Assembly (NCBI GenBank): GCA_000091205.1
Contig: AP006487.2
Strand: one strand, 5' to 3'
DNA: 64,000 nucleotides
DNA from: Cyanidioschyzon merolae
Taxonomy: Eukaryota
Part shown: positions 4,121 to 59,950 of the stretch, piece after piece
How the letters are laid out: the number at the start of each line of letters is the position of its first letter
Numbering within the stretch: the first letter of the stretch is position 1
Made by a program: the position numbers and the translations under genes
Notes under the pieces: generated by a model
The model's database searches: none
Told to the model about the DNA's origin: nothing
What the model saw: the letters and a program-made list of their open reading frames with translations, nothing else

Positions 4121-4655
4121 GACACGAAGTCATAGAACACAGGAATGTCAGTCTACGACCTGTGACCTCTATTCTGGTATCGGGTATTATCCGCACGAAC
4201 CGGGCACTCGCACTGGATGCATCCAACGCCCGCCTCGAACTTGGAGCTTAAACCCAAAAGAGTCCAGCAAAGCGATTCTGTTTGTGTACAGCGGCATAGC
4301 AGGCACTGACGGCAAGCTCAGCGTCCAGAGGATCGTACAAACTGGTTCAAACTCCAGTTGGAAGCATGGGTGATAGTCGTTGTTGGACCTGGGTGGTTTG
4401 GTGCGCCATCATCGACGCCCTCCTGGATACCGACTCCATCTCAACCATCCGATACCCCAAGCAAACACGAAAGGCACTCGATCCGTCGACCTGTGTACAA
4501 GAGCAGCGCACTGTGACGTGAACGCCACCACCGCGCTCGTGTACAAAAGTTGCTACTAGTCTCGAGCAGCTTCGCGTCTCCGGGTGCGCTGCGGCTGACC
4601 CCGTTTCTATTTCAACCAAGACGATCTAGACAAACTTAATATAGACTGGAGGAAA

Positions 4656-10059: not shown

Positions 10060-10269
10060 TGCGGAGAAGCTTGTCTACTGGGTCTTGCTATAGCGGAACG
10101 CACTCATTCAGCGCTTTCCGTCCCTTGGTATCCGAAGCCGACCCAAGTGTCATCGTGTACGCGATGTTTCGTAAACCTCGCCGCGGTAGCCCGCGGATCA
10201 TGTACCGTTGCCTGGCCTCAGGATGGAGCGAGTTCGAAACGAAAACAGTTGCCTGCAAAAATATTAAAG

Positions 10270-17530: not shown

Positions 17531-17538
17531 TATACTGA
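17104..17538 (+). CDS. hypothetical 144-aa protein encoded across the B/C modules of the repeat family
   Basis: This is an intact ORF. Its C-terminal half ('LEKASKNFQSIYAPF...PFSMLTEEMGASGT...AVECCLVHAH') is conserved at protein level, with indels, against the ORF 26545-26790 ('LEKFRFLYATSM...PFSMLNEAMGAAGT...AVEWRLVDEH'). Confidence 0.3.
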   Translation: MAYPTNHEHLRGDPLRSFLVRCKRKHALLYSIEDLQSAILSMVKQVQQAKSRLEKASKNFQSIYAPFVQSGTALPNEVDPCIASGPGIRPFSMLTEEMGASGTISAQKRAAAAAAAVECCLVHAHRERRFSVSKGIDYLTRKLY

Positions 17539-18699
17539 TTTTTCTGCATGAGCTCGTGAAAAAAGCCGTCAATGGATGAGGTCGAGCCCTTTTTCTCCGA
17601 AATCATAATACACAAAATGCTGCGCACACACGAGTTGCAACAGAAACATCCAATGTTAAGCAATATGTAGTTCGAGCATGCTACACGTAAGAAAAGGAGA
17701 AACGCGGATACTCGTACGTATCCATTGCATGATGATATCCACTACTGAACGAACCCTCGTTCTAGAGCGTCGCCAGCCATCCTGACTCAGATGACGTTAC
17801 AAAAAATCCTGCAGCAAAGCGTCCGCGGCGCGACTCCGAACAGGCTCCTGAGAATCCTAAAACTGCACATGAACACGTAAGCCCTTTTTCCTGCAGTTCG
17901 AATGTCGGCGTTGTACATCTTATAATGGTTCGAAAAATCGAAAGGCAGGCAGAAGCCAGCAGTTCTGTGCTCTATTTTTATTTGGCGCGGATGTCGAGCG
18001 CATGGCAACCAGCGACGCATGACGTCTGCCGCGGGATCGAGGACCCTATCCGAAGAACCCCAGTTGCGCAGATCTAGTGGGCAGTTAGGAGCAAACGACC
18101 GCCGTTCCCTTCTAGATTCCTCCATTCTTTCAAAGCTGTCCAGACGAGCCTAGCCGATGCCAAGAGAGGCTTGAGCGATCCACAACAACCATGCGGATAC
18201 CGCGGACGCCTTGCGAGGCCGTGACGGTGCCGCTACGCCTCAGCGGACTTCGACTAGAGACGAGGTTCGTTCAACAGGGAGATTCGGAGCTCGTCGTCGG
18301 CTTCGGACGCCAACTGGCATTACTGACAGCTTCGCTGCATGCAGCAGCGCGGACGGCCACACGAGAGGAACGCAGTGACCACAGCAAAACGGAGGCGCTG
18401 AGCACAGTCCGCCCCCGTTCACAGTCGCAGGAACATGTGTACAACGCTGTGGAGCGGCGCGAGCGACGCAGCGGCACGCACCACTGCGCAAGTACGCTGA
18501 CCACTGTACAGACTGATGGGTACACTTCACAAAAACTCTCTGCATCGAATGTAGCGTCGTCCAAGTCTCGAAAATACTACCAAATACCGCCTCTATCCGA
18601 TGGAAAACCAGGAGTGGTGTTGTTGGTACCCAGAGGACGCTGGAGCGGAGCATGCCACGCTTCCTCGGGTAGCGGGAGCCCCGTGTCACGCCCCTAGCA

Positions 18700-18860
18700 T
18701 ATGCAATATCCATGCATGAATGCTTGGATGCACGGATGCATGAATGCTTGGATGCACGGATGCTTGGATGCTTGGATGCACGGATGCTTGCATGCACGGA
18801 TGCACGGATGCTTGGATGCACGGATGCTTGGATGCACGGATGCTTGCATGCACGGATGCA
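18700..18860. repeat. 8-bp minisatellite (GGATGCWY)n, about 19 units
   Basis: direct reading of 'ggatgcttggatgcacggatgcatgaatgctt...'; it lies about 320 bp upstream of the dynamin start codon. Confidence 0.9.
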
Positions 18861-19180
18861 TCACCGATCATCAAAAAAAACCACCACAGCACCAGAAGCT
18901 AAGGCATCGATGAAATCGGACACGCTGGCACTGGACCTGCGCGCCATCGGAGCGCGCTGCTGTCCGTGGGCGCCACCGGCGCCATGCGCGCGTGCACGGA
19001 TCGCAGTGTGCCTTCGAAAGCGTTCGATGCAGGGCAGCGATCGCGCTGGTGTCCGCTTTAATGCTGTGTCCAGAATGTCCGAAACGGACGGTACGCCACC
19101 GTTCCCGGTGCTGCACGAAACGTTGACAACGAGGCTTGGCGCTCTGGGTACGCGTTGCTCGGGCGAACGCGACAGGCTTC

Positions 19181-21487: not shown

Positions 21488-22684
21488 TGCGCGTTCGTCA
21501 CATATTCGAACGATTGTAAACCAGTTTTGCCTCAGGCATCCGGGAGCAGGATCTCAGCACAGCGTTCTGGACGATGCTGGTCGCGTTTTGCGAAAAGCGT
21601 ATCCGCTGCAGCGAACGACTGCGAACGGCTCATGGATGCGTACGGTCATGCACGGGGGGCGCCCACAACGACACCCGCTCAGTGGTTTCGGGAAGGTGTT
21701 CTTGTTTTTTTCGTCTCCGAGTTTTGCGTTCGCACCGGGGCTGTCGACGCCACTGGGAGCATCCACGGCAGACTCGGCGCACGATGGAACATGAGAAACG
21801 CCCAGTATCTCCGAAGGGACCAGGGTTGATGGAATTCGGCAGTATGCCATGGAATGATGGACGCTTTCTCGGTCGCTTATAGCAAGCGTGCTACCCTCTT
21901 TCGTATATAGATTCGGTGGATCGAAAAGGCAGCTGCTCCTTGCACGCGTTCTACGATGACCGCGACGCTGGCAGGGCAGGTAACGCTCCCCGTATGCGTT
22001 CTAGCGGGTTGGCGTCGAGTGCACAGCGGCCCAGCGCTCGCCATCGTTATCCGAACGATATAGACGGGGTTCCAGACCGTACCCAGCGCTGAAGCAGATA
22101 CATGTGCGCCCCAGATATCGCCGCATCTCTGCAGCAACACCGACAAGCACCGCGTTGGCATGAGCGCTGGCCACCATCGGTAGTTGAGCACGCCCGGCAA
22201 TGCCGTGCACGCTGCTCCGGGCCGGAGCAAACCACGTGTTGTGTTTCGGACGCAAGACTCCTGGTCGATTGCTGCAAGTACGCTGATTCGATGCGTGTTT
22301 GCATGAGTTCAGTCGAGCGATATGGACAGGGGCGAGCTGCTGTGCCTTGTGCTGAATGCGGAGCATGCCCATCGCCTGGAACGGTGAATGTCGTTGCCGG
22401 TATGGATACCAGCGAGCTACCGTAACTGAGGATACCGGGAGCTCAGATCCATATAAGCCAAATCAGGTACATAGTGGTGTTGGTGGATGATATCAGCGGT
22501 AGCAGCGTCTTCTTAGAAAACAGGTATCTGCTGAAACAACAAGCGTTCTCTTGAACACGGCCGCACCGCCTGACGAGCGCTTGTCTCATTGCCTCAATAC
22601 ACGTGTTCGCGTAAAATGCAGCATGATGACTGACAATGGCGTATATGCTCAAAATTCGGCAGCTTTTCGAACGATTATGAGTAC

Positions 22685-23828
22685 CATCATTGGTGGGCGT
22701 TATCGGCAACCGCACGCTTTCCCTCTCTCTCCGTCTCTCTCGCGCGCTCTCTCTCTCGCTCGCTCTGATCTCCGGCTTCAATGGCGCAGATGGCTCTATT
22801 CCATATCGAGTCGTTGTCAGCGGTCGAAGGACGTTGAGGGCAGCTCGTAACTGCCGATTTCGCCGCACCCAGCTGTTGTCGACGCATTCAAACTGCAGGC
22901 GGACGCTGCGGACCAGGAAGCTCATTCGTAAACAGCCTCGACACGCCTTTTGCACCGTAGACGCTTGGCTACGGTCACGTGTTCCCATGCGTTCACCGCA
23001 CACCCGCATCCAACTCCTCGTCTGGCTCCTGCGTTGCCTCCGCCTCCTCCGCCTTCCAGCGTCATCCAGTGGTGCCTGAACGCATGCTTCATCGCTCGAT
23101 ACATGACGCTGACCAGTTACCGACGTCTACCACGAATGTCATGCTTCATTATCGCGCTCGATGGCATACCCGACGAATCACGAGCATCTTCGGGGTGATC
23201 CGCTCCGCTCGTTTCTTGTGAGATGCAAGCGCAAGCACGCGCTGTTGTATTCGATAGAGGATTTGCAAAGCGCGATCTTGTCAATGGTAAAACAAGTACA
23301 ACAAGCGAAATCCAGGCTGGAAAAGGCGTAGAAAAACGTTGACTGCAATCGATGATTCGCATTGCCGAGTTCAGCGCTATCTCAGCATTGCTATGTGATC
23401 AAGTCATCCAGGGAAGATCTCGGGTGTTTGCTCTCGTCCATCCAGCGGCGCGAATCGCTGTGCCCACAAATCCCCTTGAACCTGATTGGTAGAAAACCTG
23501 ATGCATGCAAAGTCTGCGCATACTCTATCTGTTTGACACGGAAAAGCATGCAGATTGCTACCCAGGACCTGGACCATGAAACCGGTTGGTTTACGAATCC
23601 TCGTTCGAGGGCGTCGCCATGCATCGGTCTTGCGGTGCCGCAACGATTTCCAGTGGCACAGCGCCCAGAGCGCCACGCCCAGGAGACAAGCGAGAATCCC
23701 AAGAATTCGGACGAATCTGTAAGACCCCATTGCTACACTTCGGTTATCGAAGCTGTACACCTGAACAGCATTCCGATAAAAATCTCAAGCCAGGACTAGA
23801 GCCAGCAGTCCAGTGTCCCATGTTCATC
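22685..23828. repeat. dispersed composite repeat, locus R2 (module B directly joined to module A)
   Basis: B is about 22700-23330 (matching 16650-17275). A is about 23345-23828 (matching 26816-27298 and 37466-37948). Confidence 0.85.
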
Positions 23829-24085
23829 GGACATAGGTATCGAAACAGACAATGTTCACTTCAAGGGTATCCTGATGTCTGCCCCTGCAATGCCTGAAAA
23901 ATCTCACTTGACGACACATCGACACGTCATGCACCATTCGAATGGTGGCGAATGACCAAAACGCGGCTGCAGAGCATCGCGCTCCATCCGGTCGCATCGC
24001 CGATACGCGCTGCGAATCCAGTACCGAAGCGTCCGAAACATGCCGAGGTAGACTCGTCATCGCTTGCGTCGACAACAAGGAACGC

Positions 24086-25320: not shown

Positions 25321-26589
25321 GAAGTCGTCGATTGCTGCGGCGGATTGCGCGGGCGCGATGCATTCGCGGTGGCGTTTTTCTCCAGTTGATGGTGTTCCAG
25401 CTGCAGATGCGTGCCACTGCATGTGCTTTTTTGCGATCTATAGCAGACGCGGTCGAATTGGATTCACTTGAAGGATTTAAAACATCTAGGAGAATGGTAT
25501 GGGCGTAAAAGTGGAGGATTTTGGAGCGTCGCCATCGCTCGGTTCTGCAAAGAAACGGGAACGATCCTCCTCTGACTGACGATCGTGCGACGAAGACGAA
25601 GAAGAACAGGGCAGAGTAGGCGAGAAAGTGTGTTTGCCTAACGAGATCATCACGGAACTGTAGTGGCAGAGAGGACGCAAGATCGAGGAATCATCGCAGT
25701 GGTGCGTTCAGCTTGCTGCGGAGCACATAGAGAACTCGTGAAGCGAGACTTCAACGCCGCCGTCGATACCAGAAAAGGTGCGGTACCGCAGACGAGAGAC
25801 GCGAGCGATGTGACGCGGGCGAAGGTTGCGGGCCAGCCTCACAGCATCGGCGTGTACGGGGTTAAGCTGAAGCCGATAGCAGGCGGCTGGTCAAAACAAG
25901 CAGGGAGGCGTCTGAGCGTAGGAATGTAAATATCATTCACGGTCGAGGGACATTTTTTGTTTTCCTGACCCTCTCCAGGATACAATGAAGCATGTTGCCT
26001 GACCAGGGCGTAAACGCTCAAGTTCGGGCTCTTTTTTAACGATCTTGAATACTTGCGTTCGCGGGCCTGTCTGTAACCGCTTCCTTTGCCTGTCTCTCGG
26101 ATTTCCGGCTTTCAATATGCGAGTCCTTTGTTTTCCTGTGGATCCGTTGTAATCAAAAGAAGGACGTTTATGGCAGTTTGAAGGCCCCGATTCTGAAGTT
26201 CCAGGCTGTTCTCGACACCGCTAATGCACAACTGGAGGTTGCGATCAACGCTTTCGTTGTGTTCTTGCGATCTTCTTTGGATAGAACTGCGGTGTGCTCG
26301 TCGCAGCGGTGAGAGTTGCCTGTCATCAGATGTTCGCATGCGCCCAACAAATTCCCTCGTCCGAGCGATTCCCCTCTGTCGTGGAAACGCTTGCTTCAGC
26401 GCTCGATGCATTGCCTCAACGGATACGGAAAGCGCGACTCGATGCTTTGCTGCGGTGAAGCCTCTGGGCGATGCCCGCGGCGAGTACCCTCGTTGCGGCA
26501 CGGCGCACGCGCACGCTGTTCCATAAGGCAGAGAATTTCGTGGAATGCACAATGTCGTCCATGATGAACCAAGTATCCGACGGGAAGTG

Positions 26590-27298
26590 AAGGCCTGGGT
26601 AGACTTGGAAAAATTTCGGTTCCTGTACGCTACCTCCATGCGAAGCAGTCGATATGATGAATCAGGTCAGAGTCCGATGCCCTTTTCCATGCTAAATGAA
26701 GCGATGGGAGCCGCTGGTACCGCATCAAAAGAGAGCTATGATGGTGATGGTGATGCTGTAGAATGGCGTCTTGTCGATGAACACATATAGGGGGAAAAAG
26801 GCTGGCCTTTCGGACGCAATCGATGATTCGCATTGCCGAGTTCAGCGCTATCTCAGCATTGCTATGTGATCAAGTCATCCAGGGAAGATCTCGGGTGTAT
26901 GCTCTCGTCCATCCAGCGGCGCGAATCGCTGTACCCACAAATCCTCTTCAACCTGATTGGTAGAAAACCTGATGCATGCAAAGTCTGCGCATACCCTGTC
27001 TGTTTGACACGGAAAAGCATGCAGATTGCTACCCAGGACCTGGACCATGAAACCGGTTGGTTTACGAAACCTCGTTCGAGGGCGTCGCCATGCATCGGTC
27101 TTGCGGTGCCGCAACGATTTCCAGTGGCACAGCGCCCAGAGCGCCACGCCCAGGAGACAAGCGAGAATCCCAAGAATTCGGACGAATCCGTAAGACCCCA
27201 TTGCTACACTTCGGTTATCGAAGCTGTACACCTGAACAGCATTCCGATAAAAATGTCAAGCCAGGACTAGAGCCAGCAGTCCAGTGTCCCGTGTTCAT
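26590..27298. repeat. dispersed composite repeat, locus R3 (module C plus module A)
   Basis: module C is about 26590-26815 and module A is 26816-27298. Confidence 0.85.
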
Positions 27299-28194
27299 TC
27301 TGACCCAGCGGTAGTACCTGATGCGTCGATTATTCGCGTCATGCGGTCGAGAATTCTCGAGCGACCACTCAGCCATGCAGCTGCGAGCGCGCTGACATAG
27401 CGTAGGCGCTCAGAAGCGGCGTCCTTGAATAACCTATCGGATGGTGCGCCCGCTGAACACCGTGCTCTATCAACGCGGTGCTGGGAGCGTTCAGACTACC
27501 CCAGGAACATCCAGTGTCGATATCGGAGCTCAATGCGGAGCTCGAATACGCGACTGGCGCTGGCCGTGTACTAGGAATATAACCCACTCACAATGAGCAT
27601 AAACGTATCATCTCAACCTACAAGAGAAAGAGACTATCTGTCAAGCAGCTTTTCGAAACTCCCCTCGAGTTTCTCAGACACGACGAGCAGCACGGCGGCA
27701 CGATGCAGCAGCATTAGATAGCAGACGTGCAGCTGGAGCACGGCGTCGTACCGAACCCGGCGCCGCACTGCGCACTTTCCAGCACCTCCGAGCCAACACC
27801 GTATGCTGACCCAAGGATACGAGAACGCTGCTCCATCTCCTTGCAGCGTCCGGAGCGGCGCTACATACGTCATGCTGGGCGATCGTCGCAGGCAAGCGGT
27901 ACGCCATAGGATCGTACGAACCAAGCATGATCTCTTCCAAAAGAAAGTATCGTTCGATCTGATCAATAGTGCTAGCTGGTAGAGCTTGGATGGATGGTGC
28001 GGTATCATACGCACGACTCTAGATACCGATATGCATCGCGTTATCGATCATTCTCTGTGGGCAAAGGCAACGATCCGTCGATGAAAAGATATCATCGGTC
28101 GCATCCTCGAGCCGACGCCCGCTGTGTGTGGCACGACAACGCCGCTCTGTCTCTGTGAAGCGACCGCATCGGCGCTATAGGTGCCATTGCTGTC

Positions 28195-28270
28195 GCTTTC
28201 GGGAGGCACTAGGCACACACGATAGGACGCACGAAACGACCAGTATATTCGAGAAGAAGTATAGGTCATG
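28195..28270 (-). repeat. third, partial copy of the conserved block-1 motif that marks the left module of the Fanzor-like elements
   Basis: The reverse complement 'ccaagttacatgacctatacttcttctcgaatatactggtcgtttcgtgcgtcctatcgtgtg' is about 80% identical over about 75 nt to 56760-56835 and 39285-39360. Confidence 0.7.
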
Positions 28271-28530
28271 TAACTTGGAAGTAGGGCGTCTGATAGATAC
28301 CTCACCGCGCACTGAAAAAAAAAGAAAGAAGAGCAAAATGCGCATAATCGGAGAACGCTGGCCGAACTTCAAGTTCTGTGAATGAAGAAATAAAAATCGA
28401 ACGCTGTCGAGGCGCCAGAGCGGCAATCCCCACAGGCGCGACGCAGACTCGCGTCTGCACGAGTACGACGGCCCAACAGCGCTAGTCTGCCGCTGTGTGC
28501 GTGATTGGGCACTACGAGCCCTGGCACCAC

Positions 28531-37379: not shown

Positions 37380-37948
37380 TCAGCATCGCGGATACCGTGC
37401 TGCTGCTGTAGAATGGCGTCTCGTCGATGAACACATATAGGGGGAAAAAGGCTGGTCTTTGGGACGCAATCGATGATTCGCATTGCCGAGTTCAGCGCTA
37501 TCTCAGCATTGCTATGTGATCAAGTCATCGAGGGAAGATCTCGGGTGTTTGCTCTCGTCCATCCAGCAGCGCGAATCGCTGTACCCACAAATCCTCTTCA
37601 ACCTGATTGGTAGAAAACCTGATGCATGCAAAGTCTGCGCATACCCTGTCTGTTTGACACGGAAAAGCATGCAGATTGCTACCCAGGACCTGGACCATGA
37701 AACCGGTTGGTTTACGAATCCTCGTTCGAGGGCGTCGCCATGCATCGGTCTTGCGGTGCCGCAACGATTTCCAGTGGCACAGCGCCCAGAGCGCCACGCC
37801 CAGGAGACAAGCGAGAATCCCAAGAATTCGGACGAATCCGTAAGACCCCATTGCTACACTTCGGTTATCGAAGCTGTACACCTGAACAGCATTCCGATAA
37901 AAATGTCAAGCCAGGACTAGAGCCAGCAGTCCAGTGTCCCATTTTATT
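37380..37948. repeat. dispersed composite repeat, locus R4 (partial module C plus module A)
   Basis: partial module C is about 37380-37465 and module A is 37466-37948. Confidence 0.85.
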
Positions 37949-38600
37949 TGAACATCTGTGTCGGATACGTCGTGTGAGCGCGTTCCTAGTCGCGCGGTCC
38001 AGGGTGCCTGCACACCGTTTTTCATCAATGGGGCGGAACAAACGACGTACCGCAAAAGACCCGGCCAGGTCATGTCCGTCGCAACAACGGAATACTCGCG
38101 TCGACTAATTCCACTGTTGCATGTCGTTCTTCTTAAAGCGCGCTGAGGAAACATCCAGCGTCTTCCAAACGCAGTTTGAGCAGGGATCGCTGATGCCGAT
38201 CCACGGATTCCAGGTGCACAGATCCCGCTCAAATACCCGGAGTTGATGCGCTCCTCCAGGTGATGAGCGTTGTGCCCTGTCGTGATCGCGCGTTGCAGTG
38301 CTGGAGCACCGTGTTCCTTCCGGTGGACGCTTCGCATGACATGATGAGCATAAACAACAACGGGGCCCGTGCAGGTAGATACGGTCAGCCTTGGCTCGGA
38401 AACCTGTGCACCGCTCGCGCTTACCTATGCGTTCACGCTGCTTCATGCGGGAACACAAGCGCCACCGGCACCACGTTCATTTCGTGGCATTCGGATGTCA
38501 TGCTGGAGCAGACGTATGCCCGTGACCACATAGGAAGCGCCCGATCCAAGTCTAAACGGGGCCCCAGCGACAACCTGCAAATCACGGTGCTCCGCCGTAG

Positions 38601-39139: not shown

Positions 39140-40800
39140 TAGAGGCACTGACCACGCAGCGGGTCGATGACGTACAACGCGCGTGGTTTTCTGTTTTGGC
39201 AGAACGTTGATCTGGACCATGGATACTAGATCCTGGGATGGATATTGCTGTTCGGGAAAGCGTCCATTAGTCTTCACTCTACCTCCGAATTCCATGACCC
39301 ATACTTCCCCTCGGATGTACTGGTCGTTTCGTACGTTCCATTGTGCACCGAGCGCATGCGATGGGCGTCTACGCTAGCGAATGTACTGCTGGGGCGGATG
39401 CAGCACGGACAGAGAACGGCTTGGCCATGCCATTCAGGCCGTCCACTCGAGGCGCAGTGCCTAGGGCGCGGAGTAGGAACTCATCCTCAACCTGGGAGCC
39501 AGCAAGCTGCGCAGACAGACCTACTGCCCGTGACAGTGCGGAGCGATTTGCTCGGATGATCCGGCGACCGGTGGAATACCTGGATGTAGCCTAATCACGA
39601 CTAGTCCAGGAAGAAAGTGCCTCGCGGGCGAGTTGCTCAGGTCGCAACCCCTGTATCCGCCGCGGGAGGCAGCACGAAGCACTTGCCTGGCACACTCGTC
39701 CGGCTCGTGGGACGCTCCACCTGGAAGGTAAACTTGCAGGAATGTGGAAAATTTTGCCCCCTTTTACCGTTTCTCGTCCAGGGGAAAGAAACTGTTATCG
39801 AGTTGCTCGGTAGTGGGTATTTTCTGTCTTTCGGCACAGTTGCAACGAGTAAGCGGTTACTTTCTGGTCTTAGCACCTCGGATGCCTCGTCGAATCATTG
39901 AAGACCTGTCCTGGACGTCCGGCGATGTCCTCGTACTGGACAACATGGCGTTTCACCGTTGCCCTTAAGTTCGAGCAGCAGCTTCTTATTCCTCCTCCGT
40001 GCACTCGTTTGTTGAACCGTATTGAAGGAGTGTTATCTTTCGGGAAATATCATGATCGCCCGAGTAAGCGAATCGCTGAAACGTTCAGTACACGATGACA
40101 CTAAGGCACATGTCGTCTTTTTTCCGCAAGTCCTTCGTCCTCCGGTAAGGTCCTAACCCAAGCGCATAAACAAGTGCGATCATTCCCAATAATAAAGCAT
40201 CCAAGGGATAAGCCAGAACAGACACTCCAGAAAGTCGAAAATGAGAGAAGCCAGCGGAGCGCTCCGGCGATAGAAACCCACAGAGAGCTGACAGAGCAGT
40301 AAATGGCACAGAAGAAACCAGTCCGAGGAATCTCTGGTTTGGCGAGATCAACCAGAAGTAAAATACATATAGAGTTCGTGAACCGCGACTCCAACGCCGC
40401 CATCAATATCACGAGATGTGCATTCCGAAACGCGACACCTGTGAAGCTCACACGAGCGAACTTTGCGGGACACCCCCCTGAGGATCCAAATGAACACGGA
40501 TAAACTGAAACCGATAACCGTCAACCAGGCAAAAAACGACCGCGATGCATCCGCGCCCCCCGAGTACCCATCTGTAGCCCGTCGACGTGAGACGCGCGCG
40601 ATCCGGACACGTCTCGTGAACGGATCGCGCGCGTGCATGCAGGTGCCGCTGCGCCACTCGCTCGCGGAACACCAACTGCTCCCTCGATCGGCGCTCGCGG
40701 GTGGAACGGCGCAGCGGCGCTGGGGCGCTCACCTGGCGGCCGTCGCACTCGACAGCACGCAGCGCTGCGATGCGTGCCGCATCCGGATCCGTGCGGCGGG
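39140..40800 (+). mobile_element. internally deleted Fanzor/TnpB-like element (copy 2): conserved left module, nuclease C-terminal relic, conserved 3' tail
   Basis: 39140-39730 shares four conserved blocks with 56630-57190. 40130-40503 is homologous at protein level to the C-terminus of the 58116-59706 nuclease. About 200 nt of non-coding homology follow the stop codon. The boundaries are approximate. Confidence 0.5.
40130..40503 (+). pseudogene. Fanzor/TnpB-like nuclease C-terminal fragment (RuvC-III 'NRDSNAAINITRC') with an in-frame stop
   Basis: Frame-1 translation '...LQKVENERSQRSAPAIETHRELTEQ*MAQKKPVRGISGLARSTRSKIHIEFVNRDSNAAINITRCAFRNATPVKLTRANFAGHP' aligns with '...LQRDEMEKCHRRSEDIEKYGPLTEERMERRAKVRGLVAFVSRNRGEKGVECANRDFNAAVYIRRCAVPEKRPEESTRANFVGHP' of copy 1. 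The RuvC-II region is degenerate. Confidence 0.6.
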
Positions 40801-40909
40801 TGAATTGCGCAGCGCGCTGTGTGTGCGCGTCGCCAAACGGCAAACGGGCAGGATCCTGTTTCTAGGAGTGCGGTATCGTCCATGCGCGTCGTGCTTTGAA
40901 AGCAGGCTC

Positions 40910-43687
40910 ATGTCCTACTACGACAGCACTTCAGGACAACATCAAGCGAATATACAAGGAAGGCAGTATCCCTCAGGGGGTTCGACTTTTACGGCGAGGC
41001 CGGCTTCTGGACGCCTTGCCAACTTTAAGACAAACTGGTTATCGTCGGGGAGTGGGCGCTTCCCGTTTTCTTCCGAGAGTCAAAACTCGACAGAAGGCGC
41101 GCAGTCGTCGAACTATCGCGGATATTCCCCTGACCAAACAGGGAGGATGCAGGCGGCGCCGGCGACTGGGTCGCGTTCCTGGTCCGGGCCCGTGAACGGC
41201 GCTGGGGGCAGCGGGGACGGCCTGCGGACTCCAGTTCGCGGCTATGGTAGCTACGGAGGCGCTGCTGCGGGTGCAGGTCCTTTTGGTGCTGCTTACACGA
41301 ATCCGTACGAGTCAACGTCGACGATAGCGTTTACGGGCCAGCCGCAGAGCGAGATGCACCTCATGATCGATGAAGCGACGCGTCCGGACTTGCCGCTTGA
41401 GCCGCCGTACCCGCAGTTTGACCCTATCATCGGACAAGTGCTGACGATGGTGCGTGGCGGAGAAATCACGGCGCGTGCTGTGAAAGACCGTCTGAAAGTG
41501 AAGAACGAGCGCACGCTGCTTCTGACGCTGGCGTTGCTCCAACGACTGATGGAGGAATGTCCAAACTTTTATATGCATATAGCAAACAAGCGTTTCTTTC
41601 GCCGAATGTGGCGGCTAGTTGTTCCCGACTACAAAAACTCTATGCGCGAGCGCTTCTACGCTACGTTCGATAAGGAAGCCCTCCAGCGCAAATACGCCAC
41701 TGGGGAGATCGACAAGCCAATCTACTACCCGGCGGTGGCCATGAAAGTGATGCAGCTGATCGAAGCCTGGGGCGAAGAATTTGAGCGTTTCCGCCCTTAC
41801 GATAGCAAGGGGCAGTTCTTTGTGAAGCGTTGGCGCAACAAGTCGCGCAAATACTCTTTCCCGCCTATGCCCGCACTTGAGGTGCCGGCTGTGTATCGGC
41901 CGGGCACATCAGAGCGTGCCATCGAACTCCGTCGTCAGCGTGAGTCTGGACAGAACCCGACCACGCCTGACTCTTTCTCAGGAAGCAGTCCTAGCACAAT
42001 GAAAGCGCGAGCTTCTGGCGCGGCGGCAGGCTCGGCAGCGCGGAACCCAACTAGACCGCGCTACGAGCTGCGGGATATCAGTGAAGCCGCTGATCTTGCC
42101 GCTGCGCTCATGGACTCCGCACCGGACGCCGGTACCGTCGCCAATGATGAGGACATAGCATCGCTGATCACGACCTGCAAGGCAATGCTTCGAGAGATGG
42201 AAAACATGGTGGCAAGCATGGATTCGGAAAAGAGTGTGGTAGAGGCGATTGCTGTGAATGAAAAATTGCTCCTGGTCATCAACCGGTTCGAAGATATTTG
42301 CTTGATGGATCCGAAAACAGTCCTGAATCGAGAAGCGGCTCGAGAGGCTTCCCGTACGAACAAGAAGCCAGCAACAGTGGATGCCGCAACCGAGGCCACG
42401 GATGTGGGCGCCATGCAGTCGCGCACTGGAGGTAAGCGCAAGACGGCTGGGTCGAGCGACGAGGAAGATTCGGACGGCTCCAGTGAGAGTGAAGACGCAG
42501 CAGGCGACGACGACGGCGTCGAGGATGATGAGCGCGTTCCAGCAAGCAACTCGAGTGGAGCGGGCCGGCGTGCGCGCGGCACAGGCGGCGCAGCAGCAGC
42601 AGCAGCAGCAGCGACGGCAACGGCGGCGGCGGCGGCGGAATCGAGCAGGTTTACAAAATCCAGCGCAGCGACAAAGGAGGACACACTGCTCTGGCTGAAT
42701 TCAGACGACGAGGATGACGAGGACGAGGCATTTGAGAAAGAGCGCTCGAGTGCGATTTCCGGACAGGGACGCGGCAGCGGAGCCTCTAGCTCCAGGAAGC
42801 ACAAACAGCCGGCGTTGCAGCCGCAACCAGTGCACAGCAGTCAAGCGAGCCGTACCCGAGCCGACACGGCGGCTACAGCGGCAGCGCAGCCGCCAGCGTA
42901 CTACATCGAGTCACCGCCCAGTACACAGTACGGATCTTACGCTTCGGCATCTTCCGCTGCGCAGAATGCCTACGGTGTGCCGCCCGGCTATCCGTACATG
43001 CACCCGGCGTATTACAACCAGGGGTATCCATACGCTGGTGCTGCCTGGAACCCGTACGGCTATCCGTATGCGGCGGCTTATGGGTACGGAGGCGCGGCGC
43101 CCCAGATGGGCAACGTTCCCAGTGGCCAAGCGCCACCCGGTGCGTCCATGATGTATGGCATGCCGTACGGCGCCTATCCTGGTGGAAATGCGTATGCGAT
43201 GTACGCGGCGGGAGATGCCGCGAACATGCCCGGAACCGCTTCAACGTCAGCGGCTCGGAACCCCTTTGAGTCCGATGGTGGCAATGAAGACGCGCAACAG
43301 GCTGCCGGGGCGTGGTCGAACGAAACCACGCGTCTGCCAGCAGTGGGTCACACGGCGCTGTTGTCGCTGACGGCGGCGGAGCCGTCAGCGTCGCATTCGG
43401 CCGACATGCCGGTACCGGCTGCAGCGGCTGCGGTGCCGCCACCAGTTGTGACGAGCCGTGGTGCGCTTGCTTTACAATCGCAATCGCGCACGTCACCGCG
43501 CGATTCGGGGCTGTTTGACGAGTTGTGGCAGGAAAAGGTATCGAGAACGGAGCAGGAATCGACGGCTCGAGCAGAGACACAAACCGGAGACGCGTCAGCA
43601 GCCCCGGATGGGCAGGGAGGCGTTGGTGCGAGCGCCACTGCGATCGCGCTGGACGGCAAAGTAAGTGAGAAAAATCCGTTTGAATGA
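40910..43687 (+). CDS. VHS-GAT domain adaptor (TOM1/GGA-like) with long low-complexity Y/G/P/A-rich C-terminal tail and NPF motifs
   Basis: The VHS-like region reads 'IIGQVLTMVRGGEITARAVKDRLKVKNERTLLLTLALLQRLMEECPNFYMHIANKRFF'. A GAT-like helical segment reads 'IASLITTCKAMLREMENMVASMD...NEKLLLVINRFEDI'. The tail contains 'YGYPYAAAYGYGG' and 'NPFE' occurs twice. The ATG at 40910 was verified; the ORF track begins at 40463, inside the element tail. Confidence 0.7.
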   Translation: MSYYDSTSGQHQANIQGRQYPSGGSTFTARPASGRLANFKTNWLSSGSGRFPFSSESQNSTEGAQSSNYRGYSPDQTGRMQAAPATGSRSWSGPVNGAGGSGDGLRTPVRGYGSYGGAAAGAGPFGAAYTNPYESTSTIAFTGQPQSEMHLMIDEATRPDLPLEPPYPQFDPIIGQVLTMVRGGEITARAVKDRLKVKNERTLLLTLALLQRLMEECPNFYMHIANKRFFRRMWRLVVPDYKNSMRERFYATFDKEALQRKYATGEIDKPIYYPAVAMKVMQLIEAWGEEFERFRPYDSKGQFFVKRWRNKSRKYSFPPMPALEVPAVYRPGTSERAIELRRQRESGQNPTTPDSFSGSSPSTMKARASGAAAGSAARNPTRPRYELRDISEAADLAAALMDSAPDAGTVANDEDIASLITTCKAMLREMENMVASMDSEKSVVEAIAVNEKLLLVINRFEDICLMDPKTVLNREAAREASRTNKKPATVDAATEATDVGAMQSRTGGKRKTAGSSDEEDSDGSSESEDAAGDDDGVEDDERVPASNSSGAGRRARGTGGAAAAAAAATATAAAAAESSRFTKSSAATKEDTLLWLNSDDEDDEDEAFEKERSSAISGQGRGSGASSSRKHKQPALQPQPVHSSQASRTRADTAATAAAQPPAYYIESPPSTQYGSYASASSAAQNAYGVPPGYPYMHPAYYNQGYPYAGAAWNPYGYPYAAAYGYGGAAPQMGNVPSGQAPPGASMMYGMPYGAYPGGNAYAMYAAGDAANMPGTASTSAARNPFESDGGNEDAQQAAGAWSNETTRLPAVGHTALLSLTAAEPSASHSADMPVPAAAAAVPPPVVTSRGALALQSQSRTSPRDSGLFDELWQEKVSRTEQESTARAETQTGDASAAPDGQGGVGASATAIALDGKVSEKNPFE

Positions 43688-46204
43688 CGCCCACGCGATA
43701 AGTTGTTCTGCAAACTGAGCATCACAACCCAAGACGGAGGAGAATTCTAAACCGTACCGATTTCCGACGGGCTCTGCACGCAACGCAACGCAACGCATCA
43801 CGTCATGAGTATGCGGCATCGCCTCATACGTCGGACGCGTTGTGCACGACTTCCCGATCGATGTTCAAGTGGTATTCGCTGTCGCGAGTGCATTCGGCCA
43901 CTGCCGTGGGTACTCAGACCGATCGATATGCTTTTCTGCAAGCGTCGCTGCTACCGCAGCCATCCTGGCTAGTCGCTCACGAGACACCGCGACGGCATTA
44001 GCGAACGTCCGCAACGCCGGCGTCCAGTGTTCAGGGGTTGTATGCCAAGCGTGTGCCGGCACCAGCGGTATTCCCGAGATGACTGCTTATCGTAGCACTA
44101 TGCAGATCTATCGACTTGAGCGTGGTCAACTCCGCGTCTAGCGTACGCGCTCTTCCACGCACTGCACAAAACGCACCCAAGCATTTCATGCTCGTGAAGC
44201 AGCGCTTCCTATAGCATCAGGTGACGCTGGTGTATGTGAGCAGCCCTGCACGCTGCGCATGGCATGGCAAAGGCGCGTGGCACGCACACGGGACACGTAG
44301 GTTGTGATGCGTGTCTTTCGGCGACACGCACGCACGCACGCATCCGGCGATGCATGAATGATGAGCGTGCCTGCGCAATCGGCGTTAGACAGGCAATTGG
44401 GCGCAGCTCGTGTCGTGTACGGCATCATGGACGAGAGCGAGGTGTTTTCCCTGTATTGGGCGTGTTTACTATCAAGGTGAACGTTTATACACACAGAGGA
44501 GAATCGCTGGTTTGGTGCTGTAGGCGCCTATGCTATGGTTTGTGCTGCTGTTTGAAGCGCGCGGCTCGTTCGCAGCGCAGTTTCTCGGGGTTCGCGCAAC
44601 GGTGCACCCTGCGTCTAGGCGTTGACTAGAGCGTCGAGGTTCCTCAGCGCATCGCTTCGCGTCGTCGCGGCAATTCGTTCAGCCGCGCGACACGCTGGTT
44701 CCCAAGGACTGACAGCGAGTCGCGACCCCGCAAACGGTCGACGACGCCTCAAGTCGACGCTCGTGGCGTCACTGCAAAGCTTTCCTGACTCTGTGGGGTA
44801 ACCGCAGCGGCAGCGCACCTGACAGAGCAGCAAGCATTTTTGGGGTATGCTCCGCATCCAGAGGTTCGCTGGATCGATTCGGCCTAATTTGCTTCCAGAA
44901 ACACCACAAGGGGACCGGGCCACGCAGAAGCGTATCTGGAGCAATCAGGGCCTCTTCCCTGGTATTTCGTTCAGTTGGCGCTTGCGGGACCTCTGGTTAC
45001 AGAACATCACTCGTACATCGTTAGAATACTGCGTGCACCTCGGGGGCTCTGAGTAAGATTTCCCTGTTCTGCTTGAAAGAAATCAAAATCTTGCGCAGCA
45101 TCCTGGGGCCATTCGCTGTCGCCCCGCCCCGTGTCGCATGATGGATGCATTATCCACGATACTGGATCATGGTACATCGATATCGTTCGCCATTTGACCT
45201 GGAAAATCTTTCCTGGTGTATATTCACAGCGCTTCAGCGTCGCAGCGTTACTGGAACGTATCGTATGAGTGCCGTGTCCCCGGTGGATTCCAATGCCCTT
45301 TCGCATGACCATTGCATGTTTCTATCGCAAGTCTTCCGCATTTCAGCAAAACGACCAAACTCCGTGGGAAACGAATCGCCCGAAAGCTCGCTCCTTATCA
45401 AGCTGCTGGACGCTCCGGAAGCATGACACGATTCCATAGGCTGATAGAGACATTCCAGTCTCGGTGCGGAGAGCGCGTGGGTTCATGGTCGCTTGTAGAG
45501 TCACACCATGGCACGCTTGTCACCCTCGATTGCCTGGTCAACTGACGTTCGCTTATCTTACAGTGAACCGTCTCATGCAAGCGGCTTTGTTGCATTCCGT
45601 TTTTATATACCTGTTTCAGCGGTAACACATGCACCCGGTGCCTGTATGTCATCTCGAACGCCTCGTTGAGAAGCATCCAGGATCGATATCTCGATCTCTC
45701 GTTTCACGCTCGTGTCGAACGAGCACGAGTGCAGCCCCTAAGCGCTAAAGCACACCCAGCACCATAGGCTACGAGCATCGAGCAACGCTCCGTGTCTGTC
45801 ATTTGCTTCCCCAACACATTGAAGTTGGCGAATGAGCGCGCCTTGCTTGTATACGACAGAGATCATTGGCAATGCCTGCACAATCCCGGATCAACCTGCC
45901 AACTGTCGCCCGCACGAGCGATTTGGACGCTGATCCACGGTGAAAATGAAGCACAGAGTGCATCCGCCGCTTTTCGGTGCGGTGCTCAGAGCGTCGACAT
46001 GGGTCCTGACGCCGTCCCTCTACTGTTCGATATACCTCTCGACGCCTATCATGATCGACGCTTGCAATCACCTGGCCCCGGAAAAGTCGACCAGTGCCAT
46101 CTAATTTCCATTCAGGCAACTGGCTCATCCCCTTTTGCTAGAGAGGTGCGTCGACGGTCATGACGCCCATCAATCCGGGATCCACGTCCACCGCGAAGTC
46201 GTTC

Positions 46205-53102: not shown

Positions 53103-55074
53103 TGCCCACCGGAAGATACCCCAGTTGGCAGGCGGGCGTCGTAGGCACGCGAGTCCAAGCGACCGTTCGGGTGCGCGCGCACGCCCGTACGCCGCTGGTG
53201 CGGCTGGGCCGCATTGTGCGCACGCTGTGGCCGCTGTGGAGCTCGCGATCTTTCGCCAACAAATGGGTGTAGGGCGCTGTAACCAACAGGTACCAAAGGT
53301 GCGTACCTGGTGGCCTGCTGCTCCGCGGAGCGAGATGCGCGCAATCGCACTGCGATTTGCAGTGTCATGCGTGGAACGATCAAATCAATGCTAACTCGAA
53401 CGGATCCCGCTGCGACCTGCGGTGCGGAGACTGAAGTTTGGGTCGATTCTTTGTGACTTGAAACAGAAGCCTTTGCGGAATATATCTGAGACTGATTTCT
53501 TTTCGTGTCGCTCGTAACTGGCTCTACATACGCGGGTGTCTGGTGCACAGCCGGCTCCGTTGTCAGCAGTGGCCGGAAGACGGTAGCGGCTGAGGTGCTG
53601 ATTTTGCAGGCCCTGGCTGACGCTGAAACCTGTCATGCATAGGCGGGGGTCGCGATCGACACCTCGCTTGCCATCTCCATGTCCTGCGCATACAGTCTCG
53701 TTGCGCCCTTCGCATCCATGATCACTGGCTGTGGTCACGTGTTGCTTCCGATCCGTGCACAGCAGCTGCTTCTCAGAGCGCCGACCTATCGCTCGTGAAT
53801 ACTCGCCTCATCGCTCGGTACATCCCCATGACGATACTGTCGGCTCGTTTCGATACCTTGTTCCGTTTTCGTGCCCGGTGCCATAACTTATGATCAGGGG
53901 CTTCTTCTGGGCGATTGACGGCGCTGCATGCCGACACGCGCACGCTGTTCCATCCGATAGGCGGTTTGTGCAATGCGATGTTCACCATGATGAAACAATT
54001 ACCGTAAGCAAAATCTATACTCGTGATCCAGACAACTTTTTTCGATCCGTCAACGCTCACTTCGTCGAAAGCGCTGTCGCATTTTCCATGAGAAGCGATC
54101 TTTGCGATGATGCAAGTCCGAGAACGTTTACCACGCACACAGATGAGGCCGCCGCCTCTGCCAGCACATCCCATGAGCTGTACCAAACAGCTGTCGAATG
54201 CCGTATCGTCGATGTCCGCAAAGCGCGCAGAATTTGCCTTTCAAACGGAATCGGTTATTGAAAGTCCCAAGTCGAGTGAACGTTCGGCAGGTGTAGGTAA
54301 AAAAGAGTCGCCATGCCACGACGCCGTTTCCTTTTTTGACGTGAATCCGTCGGCGCGAATTCCAGCGCCCACGAATTGCCTTGAAACAGAAGGACGGAGA
54401 ACATCAACATGCATTGATTTGACCATGCTAGTTGTGAGGAAATGTGATGCTTGATGACTCATTCGTACGCAGTCGATCATGGCACCGGTGATTCAAGAAA
54501 CCGTTGTTCAGAGGCGTTGAAAATCGAGCTAATCCGGATGACGTGACGAATCCCAGCAGCAAATCGTCAAAGGAGTGACTCCGAGAACACCCTCGGAACG
54601 CTCAAAATTAGTTATGAATCTCTCAGCCTTAATTTTTGCACGTTGCATGTCGTCGTTTTACGTGGAAAGAATTTCGTAAAAAAATCGCCATGCAGGACCA
54701 GAGCAAGCAGTTCAGTGTTCCAGGTTCAGCTACTGATATGAGCGAATGTCGTAGACTCCAGCGCACGTGCAGATGCAACGTCTATTGATGCACGGGTGGA
54801 GCGACGCGAGCGAGCTTCTCTTGAGCGAAGGCGATGCAACGCAACGTCGTCGTCCTGCCGAGCCTCATGGCATGCCGCGGACTCCACCGGGGAGCACTCA
54901 TACGAACAGACACAAACACATATACATACACTCGATGGGAATGGGTTCCAATGCGAGTATGTTTTCTGGTAAAACAGGGCGCCGTCGACAGGGTGTCTGC
55001 CCTACCATTCGCCAACGAGGTGGGCGGCAGCTTCGTCCAGGGCGCCGGCGCAAACGCTGCGGTCACTGTTTGGT

Positions 55075-56629: not shown

Positions 56630-59600
56630 CATGCATCGACAGCAGCAGCGCGGGCGTGATTTTACTTCGATCACAAAATTCGTTTCCAGGGGCCATGGAT
56701 CCCAGATTGCGCGATGGGCAATGGCTCTGGGGAAAGTCTCCACGATGATGCATCCACGGCCAAGTTCCATTGCTTATACTTCCTTTCGGATGCACTGGTC
56801 GTTTCGTACGTTCTGTTGTGTGCCGAGTATCTGCCTTGATGCACCAGCAATAGCGCTTATATCCCTGGTAAGGATACAGCGCGAAGACAGAGCGGATTCT
56901 TCATACTACTGACGGCGTCGAATCGAGGAATGCTACATTTATTGACAGGGAGTCACGGCAAATTATCATTCTGGGAGTCTGCAAGCTGCGCAGACAGCAT
57001 TCTGCCTGTGGCAGCGCGAAGCGATATACTAGGAGTCCACTGCCACTAGTGCGACGTCCAGACGCAGCCTGATTGCCCCTAGTCCCAGAACAGACTGCGT
57101 TGCGGACGAGCTACGCAGATCTCTCTAAAGCACCAGCCAGTTTCGAGGCACACCGAGCACCAGCCCGGCAAACTCGTCCGGCGCGCTGCACTGTTCACCT
57201 AGAAGAAAAACTTTCGACAACATAGAATCCTTTTCCCCCTTTTAATGTTTATCACAGAGGGAGAGAAGGAATTGTAATCTCGTAAGTGGATCATAGTGAT
57301 TCTCTGTTCTTTGTTCTAAATAGTGCGGTTGATACTCGCATCTGGGAGATCTGGCCGTCACGAGGCACGACGCGCATCTCGCCGTTGAAGGGAAACACGT
57401 TTCTGATCAATACCGTGTTGCTCTAATGTACAAGTTATATTTGGGTTAAAATCATAGCGAATTATAGTCTTTCAATTCAATTCTATTTCAATTCTCAGGG
57501 GAGTGTATTCAAGTGATTTTTCGCGGTGTATATTAGAAGCTTTCAAAGAGTCTTCTTTTTCAAAAAATTAAAGAAGGAAAGATATAGAAAGGAAAGTAGA
57601 GGATCCCGGCGGGCCGTTTTCTCCGGCTGTCGGAAAGAAACGGAACGCAGTGCCAAGCAAAGAGGAACACGACAGGACGAAGAAGCGAAAGAAGGATGCC
57701 AGACGTCAAAAGCTGCGAGCAAGTCGACAGTACGACGAGATAGGAGCCAAAGCCCTTCTTCTACGCCGCAGCAAGGATCCCTAAAGCAAATAACGCATGA
57801 GGTCATCAAAAAAACGTGTCGCGTCTTACGCTATGAGTATTATAAAGGCTTCTTCAGGACTGATGCATTGTCGAAGATGTACGACAACGTGACGGAAATT
57901 CGAAGAGTCGAGGTTCCGGCAGAGTTTATCAACAGGACCTTTATTCGCCTCCTGATGGTTGGCACAGGGGAAACGCCGAGGAGAAATGAGCGAGAGCATG
58001 TCCTCCACGAAAATCACAAGGAATACCGCTTCAACGGTACTCGGCACAGGGACGGCGCGGATATCTACACATACGGTGTGAAAAGTACCTCACGAACCTG
58101 AAGAACCATTTCATAATGAGCCTCAAACGCTTCGTGATACGCGCCGTCTTTGCACTCTACCCGGGTATCTCTCGCAGAGGCAGACGGGCCAGCATCGATG
58201 GCATCACGAACGACAGCAGGAGTGAACGGGAGATCGAATTCGTCCACGAGGAGACTTCAAACCGGAGTATGAATGAAGCTTCCGTGGCCCGTGCGGCTAT
58301 GCAAGAGCACCGTGCGGTCTTAGGGCTTGTCAACCCAGCGGAAAAGATATCAGATATGAAAAAGGATGGAAAAGGTGCGATTCCCTCATCCTGCGTTATT
58401 TCGTGTCCCTGAACCGAGAGCGCGAACGCAAGGCCGATATGGCGCCGGCCCTAAAAAATCGAGAGTCGGACAAACGGAAGGCTTTCCTACGAGAGAGGCG
58501 CTTCAACGTTGTTCGGATTTGCGGGATCAAGTCGGATTTCGTGACCATCAACTCCAGCGTCCTCTACTGGATCATGAGGAAGATCAGTATAGAGTTCTGT
58601 GTAAGCAACAAGGAATTCATCGGCGAGAGCCGGGAAACGTATTGGAAGAATATCCTCGATCTGAAGCGTCTCAAAACGAGCATGCGAGGGGTATCCGCGG
58701 GGATCGTCGAAACCGATAGGGTATCCATAGGTGTTCACTGACGGCGCTTGAGGGCGGATCGCCCGGTTCCATCTTCGTTGTCACCCGTGACGGAGCATGA
58801 AGGAAAGAAGGAGGCGGATCCTGCGACGCCGGCGGTGCAGGAGAACGACCGTGTCGTTGGCACGGACCGCGGAAATACGAATACCATAATCATCGCAGTA
58901 CCCAAGCCTGGGGAAGATGGTATTGACGGCAACTTATGCGAGAAAGACACGCGACTTTTGGAGTTCGCGAGAGCGAGCTATGACCGAGAATCCGGTATAA
59001 TGAATGCCAGGAAGAAAATTGAGACATGGAATGCAGGAGTCAAGGAAGAGCTGGAAGCGATCAGCCAGGTGCCTATCCGCGGAGCGGACTTTCGAGATTT
59101 TCGGGAGCTCGTGAAAATTCGCGTTGCTCATTGCGAGGATCTGTGCAAGGGGTTTGCAAAGTACCGGCTTGGTGGGCTCGTCACCACACGAACTTGTACT
59201 GTGGGGAGCAGTGTCTATTCGCGAGCTTTTCCAACCAGCTGGGCGCCCTCAAGGAAGACGATAGTCAAAGGCTCGTAACAGCGTGTGAAGCAGAGCGCTG
59301 GGCGCCAAAACAAAAGGAGTGTACGCCCGCTCCGTCGCCACGAGCGTACAAGGAGTACGCACGGCGTTTTGTTACGATACATGTAGATGAGTTCCGAACT
59401 TCATACATACAATACGAGTTGGGGTGTCCGCTCCAGAGGGACGAGATGGAAAAGTGCCATCGACGCTCTGAGGATATAGAAAAGTACGGACCGCTGACGG
59501 AAGAGCGAATGGAAAGGAGGGCGAAAGTTCGAGGACTAGTCGCATTCGTAAGTAGAAACAGAGGCGAGAAAGGTGTGGAGTGTGCGAACCGAGACTTTAA

Positions 59601-59950
59601 TGCCGCTGTGTATATCAGGAGATGCGCAGTGCCGGAGAAGAGACCCGAGGAGTCGACGAGGGCCAACTTTGTGGGGCACCCCTATTCCCCCTCCGCCCCG
59701 AGGTGAAATTGCACGCGAATACGTTGAAACCAGCAGTAGGTGGCCAGTCAAGGAAAACGGGTAGGCGTCTGCACGCCGGTGCGTGGACATCCAGCCTACG
59801 GCCGGGCGGCGCGCTGCCCGCCACCACTGCACACCAGAAGCGCAGCGTTTGCCGCCTGGAAGAGAGTCGTTGCTGCCGGTGTTCCTCTAGTCGAGTTTAA
59901 GAGTTTGGACCGGTCGTTCCTGTAAATCTCGATGAGATTGGGATTTTAAA
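56630..59950 (+). mobile_element. Fanzor/TnpB-like element (copy 1): conserved left module, AT-rich island, frame-disrupted nuclease gene, conserved 3' tail
   Basis: Left module is 56630-57190, with blocks shared with 39140-39730. An AT-rich island follows at 57190-57600. The nuclease relic spans 58116-59706. The 3' tail of about 250 nt runs to the next gene (59970) and is homologous to 40503-40750. Confidence 0.5.
58116..59706 (+). pseudogene. Fanzor/TnpB-like RuvC nuclease gene, frame-disrupted (or intron-interrupted)
   Basis: The RuvC-I motif 'RVVGTDRGNTNTIIIAV' lies at about 58850-58900 in frame 2. The RuvC-II motif 'IRVAHCEDLCKGFAKY' is also in frame 2, with the E codon at 59135. After a shift to frame 1 near 59175-59200 come 'RRFVTIHVDEFRTSYIQYELGC' (the conserved TS motif that precedes the zinc finger), a degenerate zinc finger 'C...C.H', and the RuvC-III motif 'ANRDFNAAVYIRRC' with the D codon at 59593. 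An in-frame TGA at 58739 and at least one frameshift break the reading frame. A possible N-terminal 'RFVIRAVFALYPG' lies in a third frame at 58116. Confidence 0.6.

Follow-up and report, generated by a model that had tools for sequence, protein, structure and literature searches.

The conserved non-coding module that an earlier note described upstream of two Fanzor-like loci, in the 64,000-nt stretch of Cyanidioschyzon merolae DNA analysed here (the window), is very probably a copy of TE-N2_CMe, a non-coding repeat of ~640-655 nt that occurs alone or as the 5' end of the element CMe-1A and that would act in cis, as DNA. The finding is thus a rediscovery of a sequence already known, as the 5' module of CMe-1A, and published for this genome in 2013. 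CMe-1A was described as a Fanzor1 element of ~3 kb, present in ~150 copies that are ~80% identical to their consensus. Its 5' 635 bp are 95% identical to a separate repeat of ~70 copies, TE-N2_CMe; both lack terminal inverted repeats (TIRs), their target-site duplications (TSDs) could not be determined, they were left unclassified, and no transposase was found for CMe-1A (Bao & Jurka 2013, Mob DNA 4:12, PMC3627910).

The identification was made with the CMe-1A consensus (3169 bp) taken from the supplement of that paper (PMC3627910). In blastn alignments, positions 56668-59850 of the window correspond to consensus positions 1-3154 with 79.5% identity, and a second segment matches the 5' part of the consensus only (copy A in Table 1). 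Assignment of the module to TE-N2_CMe rests on these matches together with the 95% figure stated in the 2013 description. Seven ORFs of the window match proteins of C. merolae 10D exactly (in the range BAM79251-BAM79266, namely BAM79251, 79253, 79254 and 79264-79266, including CME033C); therefore, the window belongs to the very genome in which TE-N2_CMe was described. For the SMC ORF of the window, an exact look-up returned no record.

The two tracts originally compared, 56630-57190 and 39140-39730, do share sequence beyond chance: in blastn searches, 39178-39831 and 56651-57312 are 64% identical over 666 columns (E 3e-62 and 1e-60 in two runs). To place the boundaries, 15 non-redundant copies of the module were aligned together with 200 nt on each side. 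Within the unit, columns reach identities of 0.6-0.9, against 0.25-0.45 or less in the adjoining 100 nt; since identity drops sharply at both edges (at about 56655 and 57311 in copy B), the module is a discrete unit of ~655 nt. The true unit is slightly wider than the tracts originally compared (Table 1), and in copy B a short run of T, immediately before the point where the published CMe-1A consensus starts, belongs to it. All four conserved blocks of the original description are found in the pairwise alignment, but the similarity runs continuously through the spacers and is not confined to islands. The unit ends on its 3' side with CTCTGTTCTTTG and has no tail; in copies fused to a Fanzor unit, this end is followed by a constant TTCTA(A/T)ATAG-(C/T)GCGGTCGATAC.

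Table 1. Copies and fragments of the module, and associated Fanzor1 units, in the window
Feature	Position	Strand	Evidence
TE-N2_CMe-type module, full-length, copy B	56654-57314	+	5' 636 bp of CMe-1A; nhmmer profile positions 13-667, E 5e-183; sharp boundaries in 15 copies; ~655 nt
TE-N2_CMe-type module, full-length, copy A	39174-39831	+	39197-39831 = consensus 4-636 at 76.1%, E 2e-129 (blastn); nhmmer E 6e-172; sharp ends, ~655 nt
Fanzor1 unit of CMe-1A copy B: 5' leader, Fanzor1 pseudogene, 3' end with hairpins	57315-59850	+	frames, motifs, homologues, consensus alignment
Fanzor-unit remnant attached to copy A, interior deleted, 3' end kept	39832-40554	+	40222-40554 = consensus 2751-3084
TE-N2-like subfamily, 5' fragment (the solitary block 1)	28104-28390	-	consensus 84-257 at 76.4%; nhmmer E 3e-38
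Second, more decayed 5' fragment, directly adjoining 28104-28390	27789-28090	-	nhmmer profile positions 20-282, E 1e-14
Module 5' fragment containing block 1	21670-21880	-	consensus 60-246 at 66.5%; nhmmer E 4e-22
Module internal fragment	44446-44821	-	consensus 187-554 at 60.5%, E 1.5e-18; nhmmer E 4e-19
Weak module match	4240-4432	-	profile search / consensus alignment
Weak module match	18225-18384	+	profile search / consensus alignment
Short Fanzor-unit derivative without module, same transposon family	25420-25919	+	consensus 833-964 joined to 2833-3088

Related loci come from a single scan, in which an alignment of Fanzor homologues was run against metagenome contigs and gave 298 relatives; 80 loci were kept. 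The nhmmer profile was built from 15 module copies and found 75 matches in the window and the related loci (81 in this tally) combined.

Copy B is followed downstream by several ORFs (locus B) that overlap one another in three frames and contain RuvC-like motifs of the TnpB/Fanzor type (GTDRGNTN, VDEFRTS and NRDFNAAVYI). The pseudo-protein stitched together at this locus has 35 metagenome homologues at 44-63% identity (best E 4e-200), and a Fanzor-like gene, as originally proposed, is indeed present. Searches of Pfam-A returned no match for the pieces at locus B or for the intact homologues. An intact relative of 752 aa is found in one metagenome locus (L001), and the CMe-1A consensus encodes the 734-aa CMe-1 protein. 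The gene at locus B is broken, by no fewer than four frameshifts and an in-frame stop, and is therefore a pseudogene; the locus as a whole is a decayed, near-full-length CMe-1A. The Fanzor start codon corresponds to the ATG at consensus position 906, with a stop four codons upstream of it in the consensus. Upstream of this codon, the module thus occupies the stretch from ~270 nt (by the consensus; ~340 nt in copy B) out to ~900 nt.

The situation at copy A (locus A) is different from what had been supposed. No more than the final ~330 nt of the Fanzor unit are left there (40222-40554), and the gap between the module and this 3' piece measures ~390-450 nt as compared to ~2.1-2.2 kb at locus B. 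The long ORF at this locus (40463-43687) looks to be a host gene, with matches to the VHS and GAT domains (E 3e-6 and 6.5e-6, both just below the curated thresholds of Pfam). Locus A is thus not a Fanzor locus of the kind seen at locus B; it is a CMe-1A whose interior was deleted and whose two ends remain.

A further occurrence of block 1, on the minus strand at 28195-28270, had been reported as solitary. It is present, within a longer fragment of 190-290 nt (28104-28291, reaching about 28390 by homology to a subfamily copy) that is 76% identical over 292 nt to positions 8402-8687 of L001. The other three fragments and the two weak matches in Table 1 were not in the earlier note; in one of them, positions 21773-21871 are 73% identical to 39352-39253 of copy A (blastn). 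Aligned with the CMe-1A consensus, the minus-strand fragments extend over 28285-28104, 21871-21673 and 44813-44446. The joined arrangement of the short derivative at 25420-25919 recurs in five of the related loci (L035, L037, L038, L039 and L072). This sequence belongs to the same transposon family and is not itself a copy of the module. Occurrence at many loci away from Fanzor-like ORFs, coupled with an absence of covariation, had been named at the outset as the mark of a generic repeat. This is in part what the data show: the module is without an adjacent Fanzor ORF in six of its eight window matches, and ~70 solo copies are on record (PMC3627910).

Mapping the consensus on all loci revealed three arrangements. 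The module can be fused to a Fanzor unit, with consensus 1-3169 contiguous; many Fanzor units start cleanly at consensus position ~648, with no module in direct orientation in front of them; and modules, solo or truncated, can lie far from any Fanzor unit. A short form of the module, covering profile positions ~12-290, is recurrent. Fanzor-only units have a small terminal hairpin as their left end (GCGCTCGGTGAGCGC and variants). As some of the units starting at ~648 without a direct module have intact ORFs, the module is not an obligatory left end.

The sequence directly 5' of position ~648 was tabulated in non-redundant loci. It is the 3' end of the module, in direct orientation, in ~8 loci, and the 5' end of a TE-N2-like subfamily, inverted, in ~5; only ~5-6 loci have unrelated sequence. 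Because the Fanzor left end abuts a TE-N2-type terminus in most non-redundant loci, one could envisage that Fanzor units dock preferentially at, or partner with, the TE-N2-type module, which would then be more than a passive neighbor. We regard this as improbable. The abutting pattern could reflect insertion preference, co-amplification of composites, or nesting in repeat-rich DNA. Beside the left end of the Fanzor units, no conserved tetra- or pentanucleotide target is seen in the metagenome loci; no TSD is common to the flanks of the 15 module copies, no end-to-end TIR exists in the three copies examined, and no transposase was found here for CMe-1A or the module. A search for the empty site recovered none: every contig that encodes CME033C exactly breaks off 160-710 nt before the gene, apparently at the point where the repeat starts. 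Should the docking pattern reflect end-directed insertion or co-mobilisation, it would provide a handle on how transposase-less Fanzor1 elements spread.

The module does not encode protein. No ORF is kept across its copies, the longest ones varying in frame and position; stops occur in nearly every frame of every copy, and the CMe-1A consensus has no long ORF within the module part. Substitution rates relative to the consensus are the same at the three codon phases over positions 1-360 (0.20, 0.21 and 0.20). Over positions 360-640 the phases are slightly uneven (0.198 versus about 0.24), which we attribute to noise, as that region has no ORF. A coding exon or small protein was ruled out on the basis of the lack of a kept ORF, the equal phase rates, and the stop that precedes the Fanzor ATG. 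The peptide motif shared by the copies in the ORF translations had been called spurious, and the same observations bear this out: the motif is a by-product of common nucleotides.

Conservation along the module was measured as identity to the majority base in 15 main-type copies. Values for blocks 1 to 4 are 0.86, 0.85, 0.86 and 0.93, against 0.77-0.81 for the spacers and 0.81 overall; only block 4 (GCAGACTCGTCCGGCTCGC, 57168-57186) exceeds a family-wise permutation threshold. Copies A and B share exact runs of 20 and 17 nt, for which uniform decay gives P values of about 0.009 and 0.001. Block 1 is the best-kept part in the diverged subfamily, and CpG positions are barely less conserved than others. 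Altogether, the conserved blocks are real but modest, and they fit cis-acting sites in an element that otherwise drifts freely.

Conserved blocks with variable spacers had initially been taken to indicate either a structured RNA or a transposon end. The second interpretation stands, as the module is the 5' terminal part of a Fanzor-carrying element; the first found no support in folding, covariation or Rfam searches. The minimum free energies of 12 full-length copies are no better than those of dinucleotide shuffles (mean z -0.35 on the plus strand and -0.77 on the minus strand). RNAalifold gave 4 pairs and -0.92 kcal/mol with 24 copies, and in its Python version, over 700 columns, energies of -15.8 (plus strand) and -11.4 kcal/mol (minus strand) with a covariation term near 0. 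When the minimum-free-energy fold of the consensus was imposed on the alignment, 71.5% of the cells could pair, as compared to 70.6% in shuffles; pairs changed on both sides numbered 71 versus 74.5, and there were fewer pair types than in shuffles. Thus, pairs decay at about the neutral rate. Averaging base-pair probabilities over the copies left only one consistent plus-strand helix, an exhaustive search for stacked complementary columns returned mostly 4-bp noise, and Rfam gave no match to the module even at E<=5.

These negative results must be read in the light of a positive control. On inspection, the Fanzor unit clearly has hairpins at its 3' end whose complementary stems come in alternative versions (CGTTCGA...TCGAACG versus CGTTTTTC...GAAAGGCG), and RNAalifold and pair counting missed them too, the pair count being at shuffle level. 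The negative obtained for the module therefore has limited power. In the sequence alignment, the two 3'-end hairpin variants are offset by three columns. We conclude that conserved RNA structure in the module is unsupported by these low-power tests.

That the module specifies a structured non-coding RNA, for example one serving Fanzor as an upstream guide or accessory, appears very unlikely. Two features speak in favor of this reading: the blocks are somewhat better conserved than the spacers, and the predictions for many copies include an 8-bp inverted repeat that pairs CGGACGAG at 57103-57110 with CTCGTCCG at 57173-57180. This helix shows one double compensatory change, and about six of seven single changes give G-U on the plus strand (a by-eye count that is not significant). 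Besides the folding and Rfam results above, an argument against a guide function is that the 3' end of the module abuts constant sequence in the fused copies, which leaves no variable guide. The upstream guide RNA was thus checked and found no support. As in characterised Fanzor/TnpB systems, the guide RNA would instead be encoded at the opposite, 3' end of the element, where candidate omegaRNA hairpins are found at 59.7-59.85 kb.

How the module might work can be outlined as follows. Acting in cis as DNA, it would be a left-end sequence needed to mobilise the composite, a promoter or leader for the Fanzor gene, or both. Its better-conserved blocks may be protein-binding or end-recognition sites kept in those lineages that went on copying. 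The other window matches are solo or truncated copies. Locus A, which retains both ends while the middle is missing, fits a need for both ends in cis. No enzyme is known that could carry out such end recognition.

Alternatively, the module could be a non-autonomous element in its own right that does nothing for Fanzor, its blocks serving only its own mobilisation; CMe-1A would then have arisen when a Fanzor unit landed beside a copy, or a copy beside a Fanzor unit, and the two were from then on copied as a fused pair. This we consider quite possible, if short of probable. It would account for the sharp ends that solo copies share with the others, for the ~70 stand-alone copies (PMC3627910), and for the fact that Fanzor units begin cleanly at ~648 with their own hairpin, with unrelated upstream sequence in several loci. 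It accords less well with the fused form being the commoner one (~150 versus ~70 copies; PMC3627910) and with the retention of the module in deleted derivatives such as locus A. The scenario overlaps heavily with the cis-acting module favored here, the sole difference being whether the Fanzor unit benefits.

More doubtful is that the main task of the module is to provide the Fanzor gene with its promoter and 5' leader. The module does lie directly upstream, and co-oriented, in CMe-1A copies; a TATATAG-like sequence is found at the junction (consensus 641-647; TAAATAG in copy B), and the inverted fragment at 28.2 kb ends ~100 nt from the start of a host ORF (2042 aa, starting at 28495). However, Fanzor-only units keep intact ORFs, one of them (P0002 in L001) lying 700 nt away from a module copy, with other sequence in between; solo copies are common, and the TATA-like motif is absent in the inverted-neighbor arrangements. 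Lastly, a generic repeat of the SINE or MITE type would be short, non-coding, and dispersed in both orientations, as the module is. The module has neither a tRNA-, 7SL- or 5S-like head (by ARAGORN, and by Rfam at E<=5), nor a poly(A) or simple-repeat tail, nor a terminal inverted repeat, and no TSD was seen in the 15 copies or by Bao and Jurka (PMC3627910). All this makes such an origin extremely unlikely. A known RNA family or a tRNA-derived SINE was ruled out on the same searches, Rfam and ARAGORN both being without a match.

As a discovery, the module is minor, since the 2013 publication already gave the repeat together with its length, number of copies and position at the 5' end of the Fanzor1 element. 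What is gained is a correct annotation of the window: it holds a decayed CMe-1A, a derivative shortened by deletion, and several solo fragments. The diverged copies in hot-spring metagenomes, to which the relatives recovered in our scan belong, would permit a comparative study.

Compared with the published TE-N2_CMe and the 5' 635 bp of CMe-1A, nothing essential differs. Organism, sequence (76-79.5% identity to the consensus, in line with the published ~80%), length, position before Fanzor1, occurrence of solo copies, and lack of TIRs are all alike. In comparison to the published CMe-1A consensus, our alignment points to a conserved T-run, ~7-10 nt long, immediately before its first position, and diverged subfamilies (L001-type copies and the 28.2 kb fragment) depart from TE-N2_CMe over their first ~100 nt and end sooner on the 3' side.

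The module resembles the omegaRNA (reRNA) of TnpB and Fanzor in that both are conserved non-coding sequences tied to a Fanzor gene at a transposon end. It differs in lying at the 5' end, with no overlap with the 3' end of the ORF, and in lacking an adjoining variable guide and a conserved fold detectable in our low-power tests. At ~650 nt, it is also much longer than known omegaRNA scaffolds. Another parallel is offered by non-autonomous partners such as the MCi-2 subfamilies or HAL1 and L1, where a protein-carrying element and a short non-coding one share a terminal region. The Fanzor1 subfamilies of MCi-2 likewise differ in their 5' regions (PMC3627910), i.e., in their 5' modules. What differs is that CMe-1A has no known transposase, TSD or superfamily, so that mobilisation in trans is not assignable. 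Finally, CMe-1A shares with IS200/IS605 elements and their PATE-like derivatives the absence of TIRs and TSDs and the association with a gene of the TnpB family; the ends of the Fanzor unit are also hairpin-forming, with GCGCTCGGTGAGCGC on the left and a terminal hairpin of 10-12 bp on the right. Unlike the IS200/IS605 type, however, CMe-1A has neither a TnpA-like gene nor a conserved tetra- or pentanucleotide target beside the left end, and the module itself lacks clear subterminal hairpins common to its copies.

Fanzor-only units begin at about position 648 of the 3169-bp CMe-1A consensus, with a terminal hairpin, GCGCTCGGTGAGCGC, of which covarying variants occur. The published consensus takes the 5' module and the Fanzor unit as one element (PMC3627910). 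A terminus of the TE-N2 type (the repeat family of the module) often adjoins Fanzor-only units, in either direct or inverted orientation.

Within otherwise intact Fanzor ORFs, consensus positions 2117-2196 (75 nt, 25 aa) are present in one to five tandem repeats. The repeated peptide is acidic, carries the motif KHE-D-KKEA...QEV-DNDFVVG and lies immediately ahead of the first RuvC motif; it is a linker of variable length. A shorter form of the unit, approximately 450-500 bp long, recurs as a fusion of consensus positions ~830-1010 to ~2810-3088, with a 3' tail that differs past GGAGGCGTCTG. It looks like a separate short non-autonomous subfamily, one that retains the putative guide-RNA region.

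All ten contigs from JGI samples containing exact CME033C, L082-L091, stop 160-710 nt upstream of it, apparently where the right end of the CMe-1A copy lies. Short-read assemblies are broken by the CMe-1A repeat, and a copy census drawn from them will be biased.

A second dispersed repeat family also occupies the window, most of its copies being about 58-62% identical to each other. Three copies (23345-23842, 26816-27298 and 37466-37963) are nearly identical (96-98%), and 16642-17296 matches 22695-23354 at 97.6% identity. Members are found upstream of both module copies, at 39174-39831(+) and 56654-57314(+). The SRP receptor alpha gene, on the minus strand, has its 5' end at 10059, and the 73-bp tandem array starts roughly 70 bp away from that end. 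The inverted repeat pair bears no relation to the module.

Coordinates of repeats and Fanzor-unit features in the window and at related metagenome loci (L numbers)
Feature	Window	Other loci	Remarks
Fanzor-only unit starts		L001:9675, L003:1654/2936, L005:7672, L023:7633, L055:1056, others	
Tandem 75-nt repeat in Fanzor ORFs		L016:9113-9490, L021:9295-9596, L036:1056-1357, others	
Short Fanzor-unit derivative	25420-25919	L035:11406-11907; L037:7415-7931 and 9137-9606; L039:2191-2530; L072:2782-3237	
Hairpin-forming Fanzor-unit 3' end	59700-59850	loci aligned in A4	
Second dispersed family	611-1416(-), 17001-17972, 23058-23827, 26017-27297, 37405-37950, 53431-54728		
73-bp tandem array	10127-11002		~9-12 copies, core identity 95-99%
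Array of 8-bp units (GGATGCAC / GGATGCTT variants)	18687-18884		~17-25 copies
Diverged inverted repeat pair	15138-15554 and 48032-47616(-)		62.6% identity, 422 nt

In the window and in the loci of alignment A4, the final ~170 nt of the Fanzor unit form several hairpins and overlap the 3' end of the ORF; in the near-full-length decayed copy ending at 59850 this region is degenerate. For the terminal hairpin there are two complementary alternatives, CGTTCGA-CTT-TCGAACG and CGTTTTTC-TTTT-GAAAGGCG, and sequence conservation ends directly past it. Such a stop is the pattern expected if an omegaRNA scaffold were followed by its guide.
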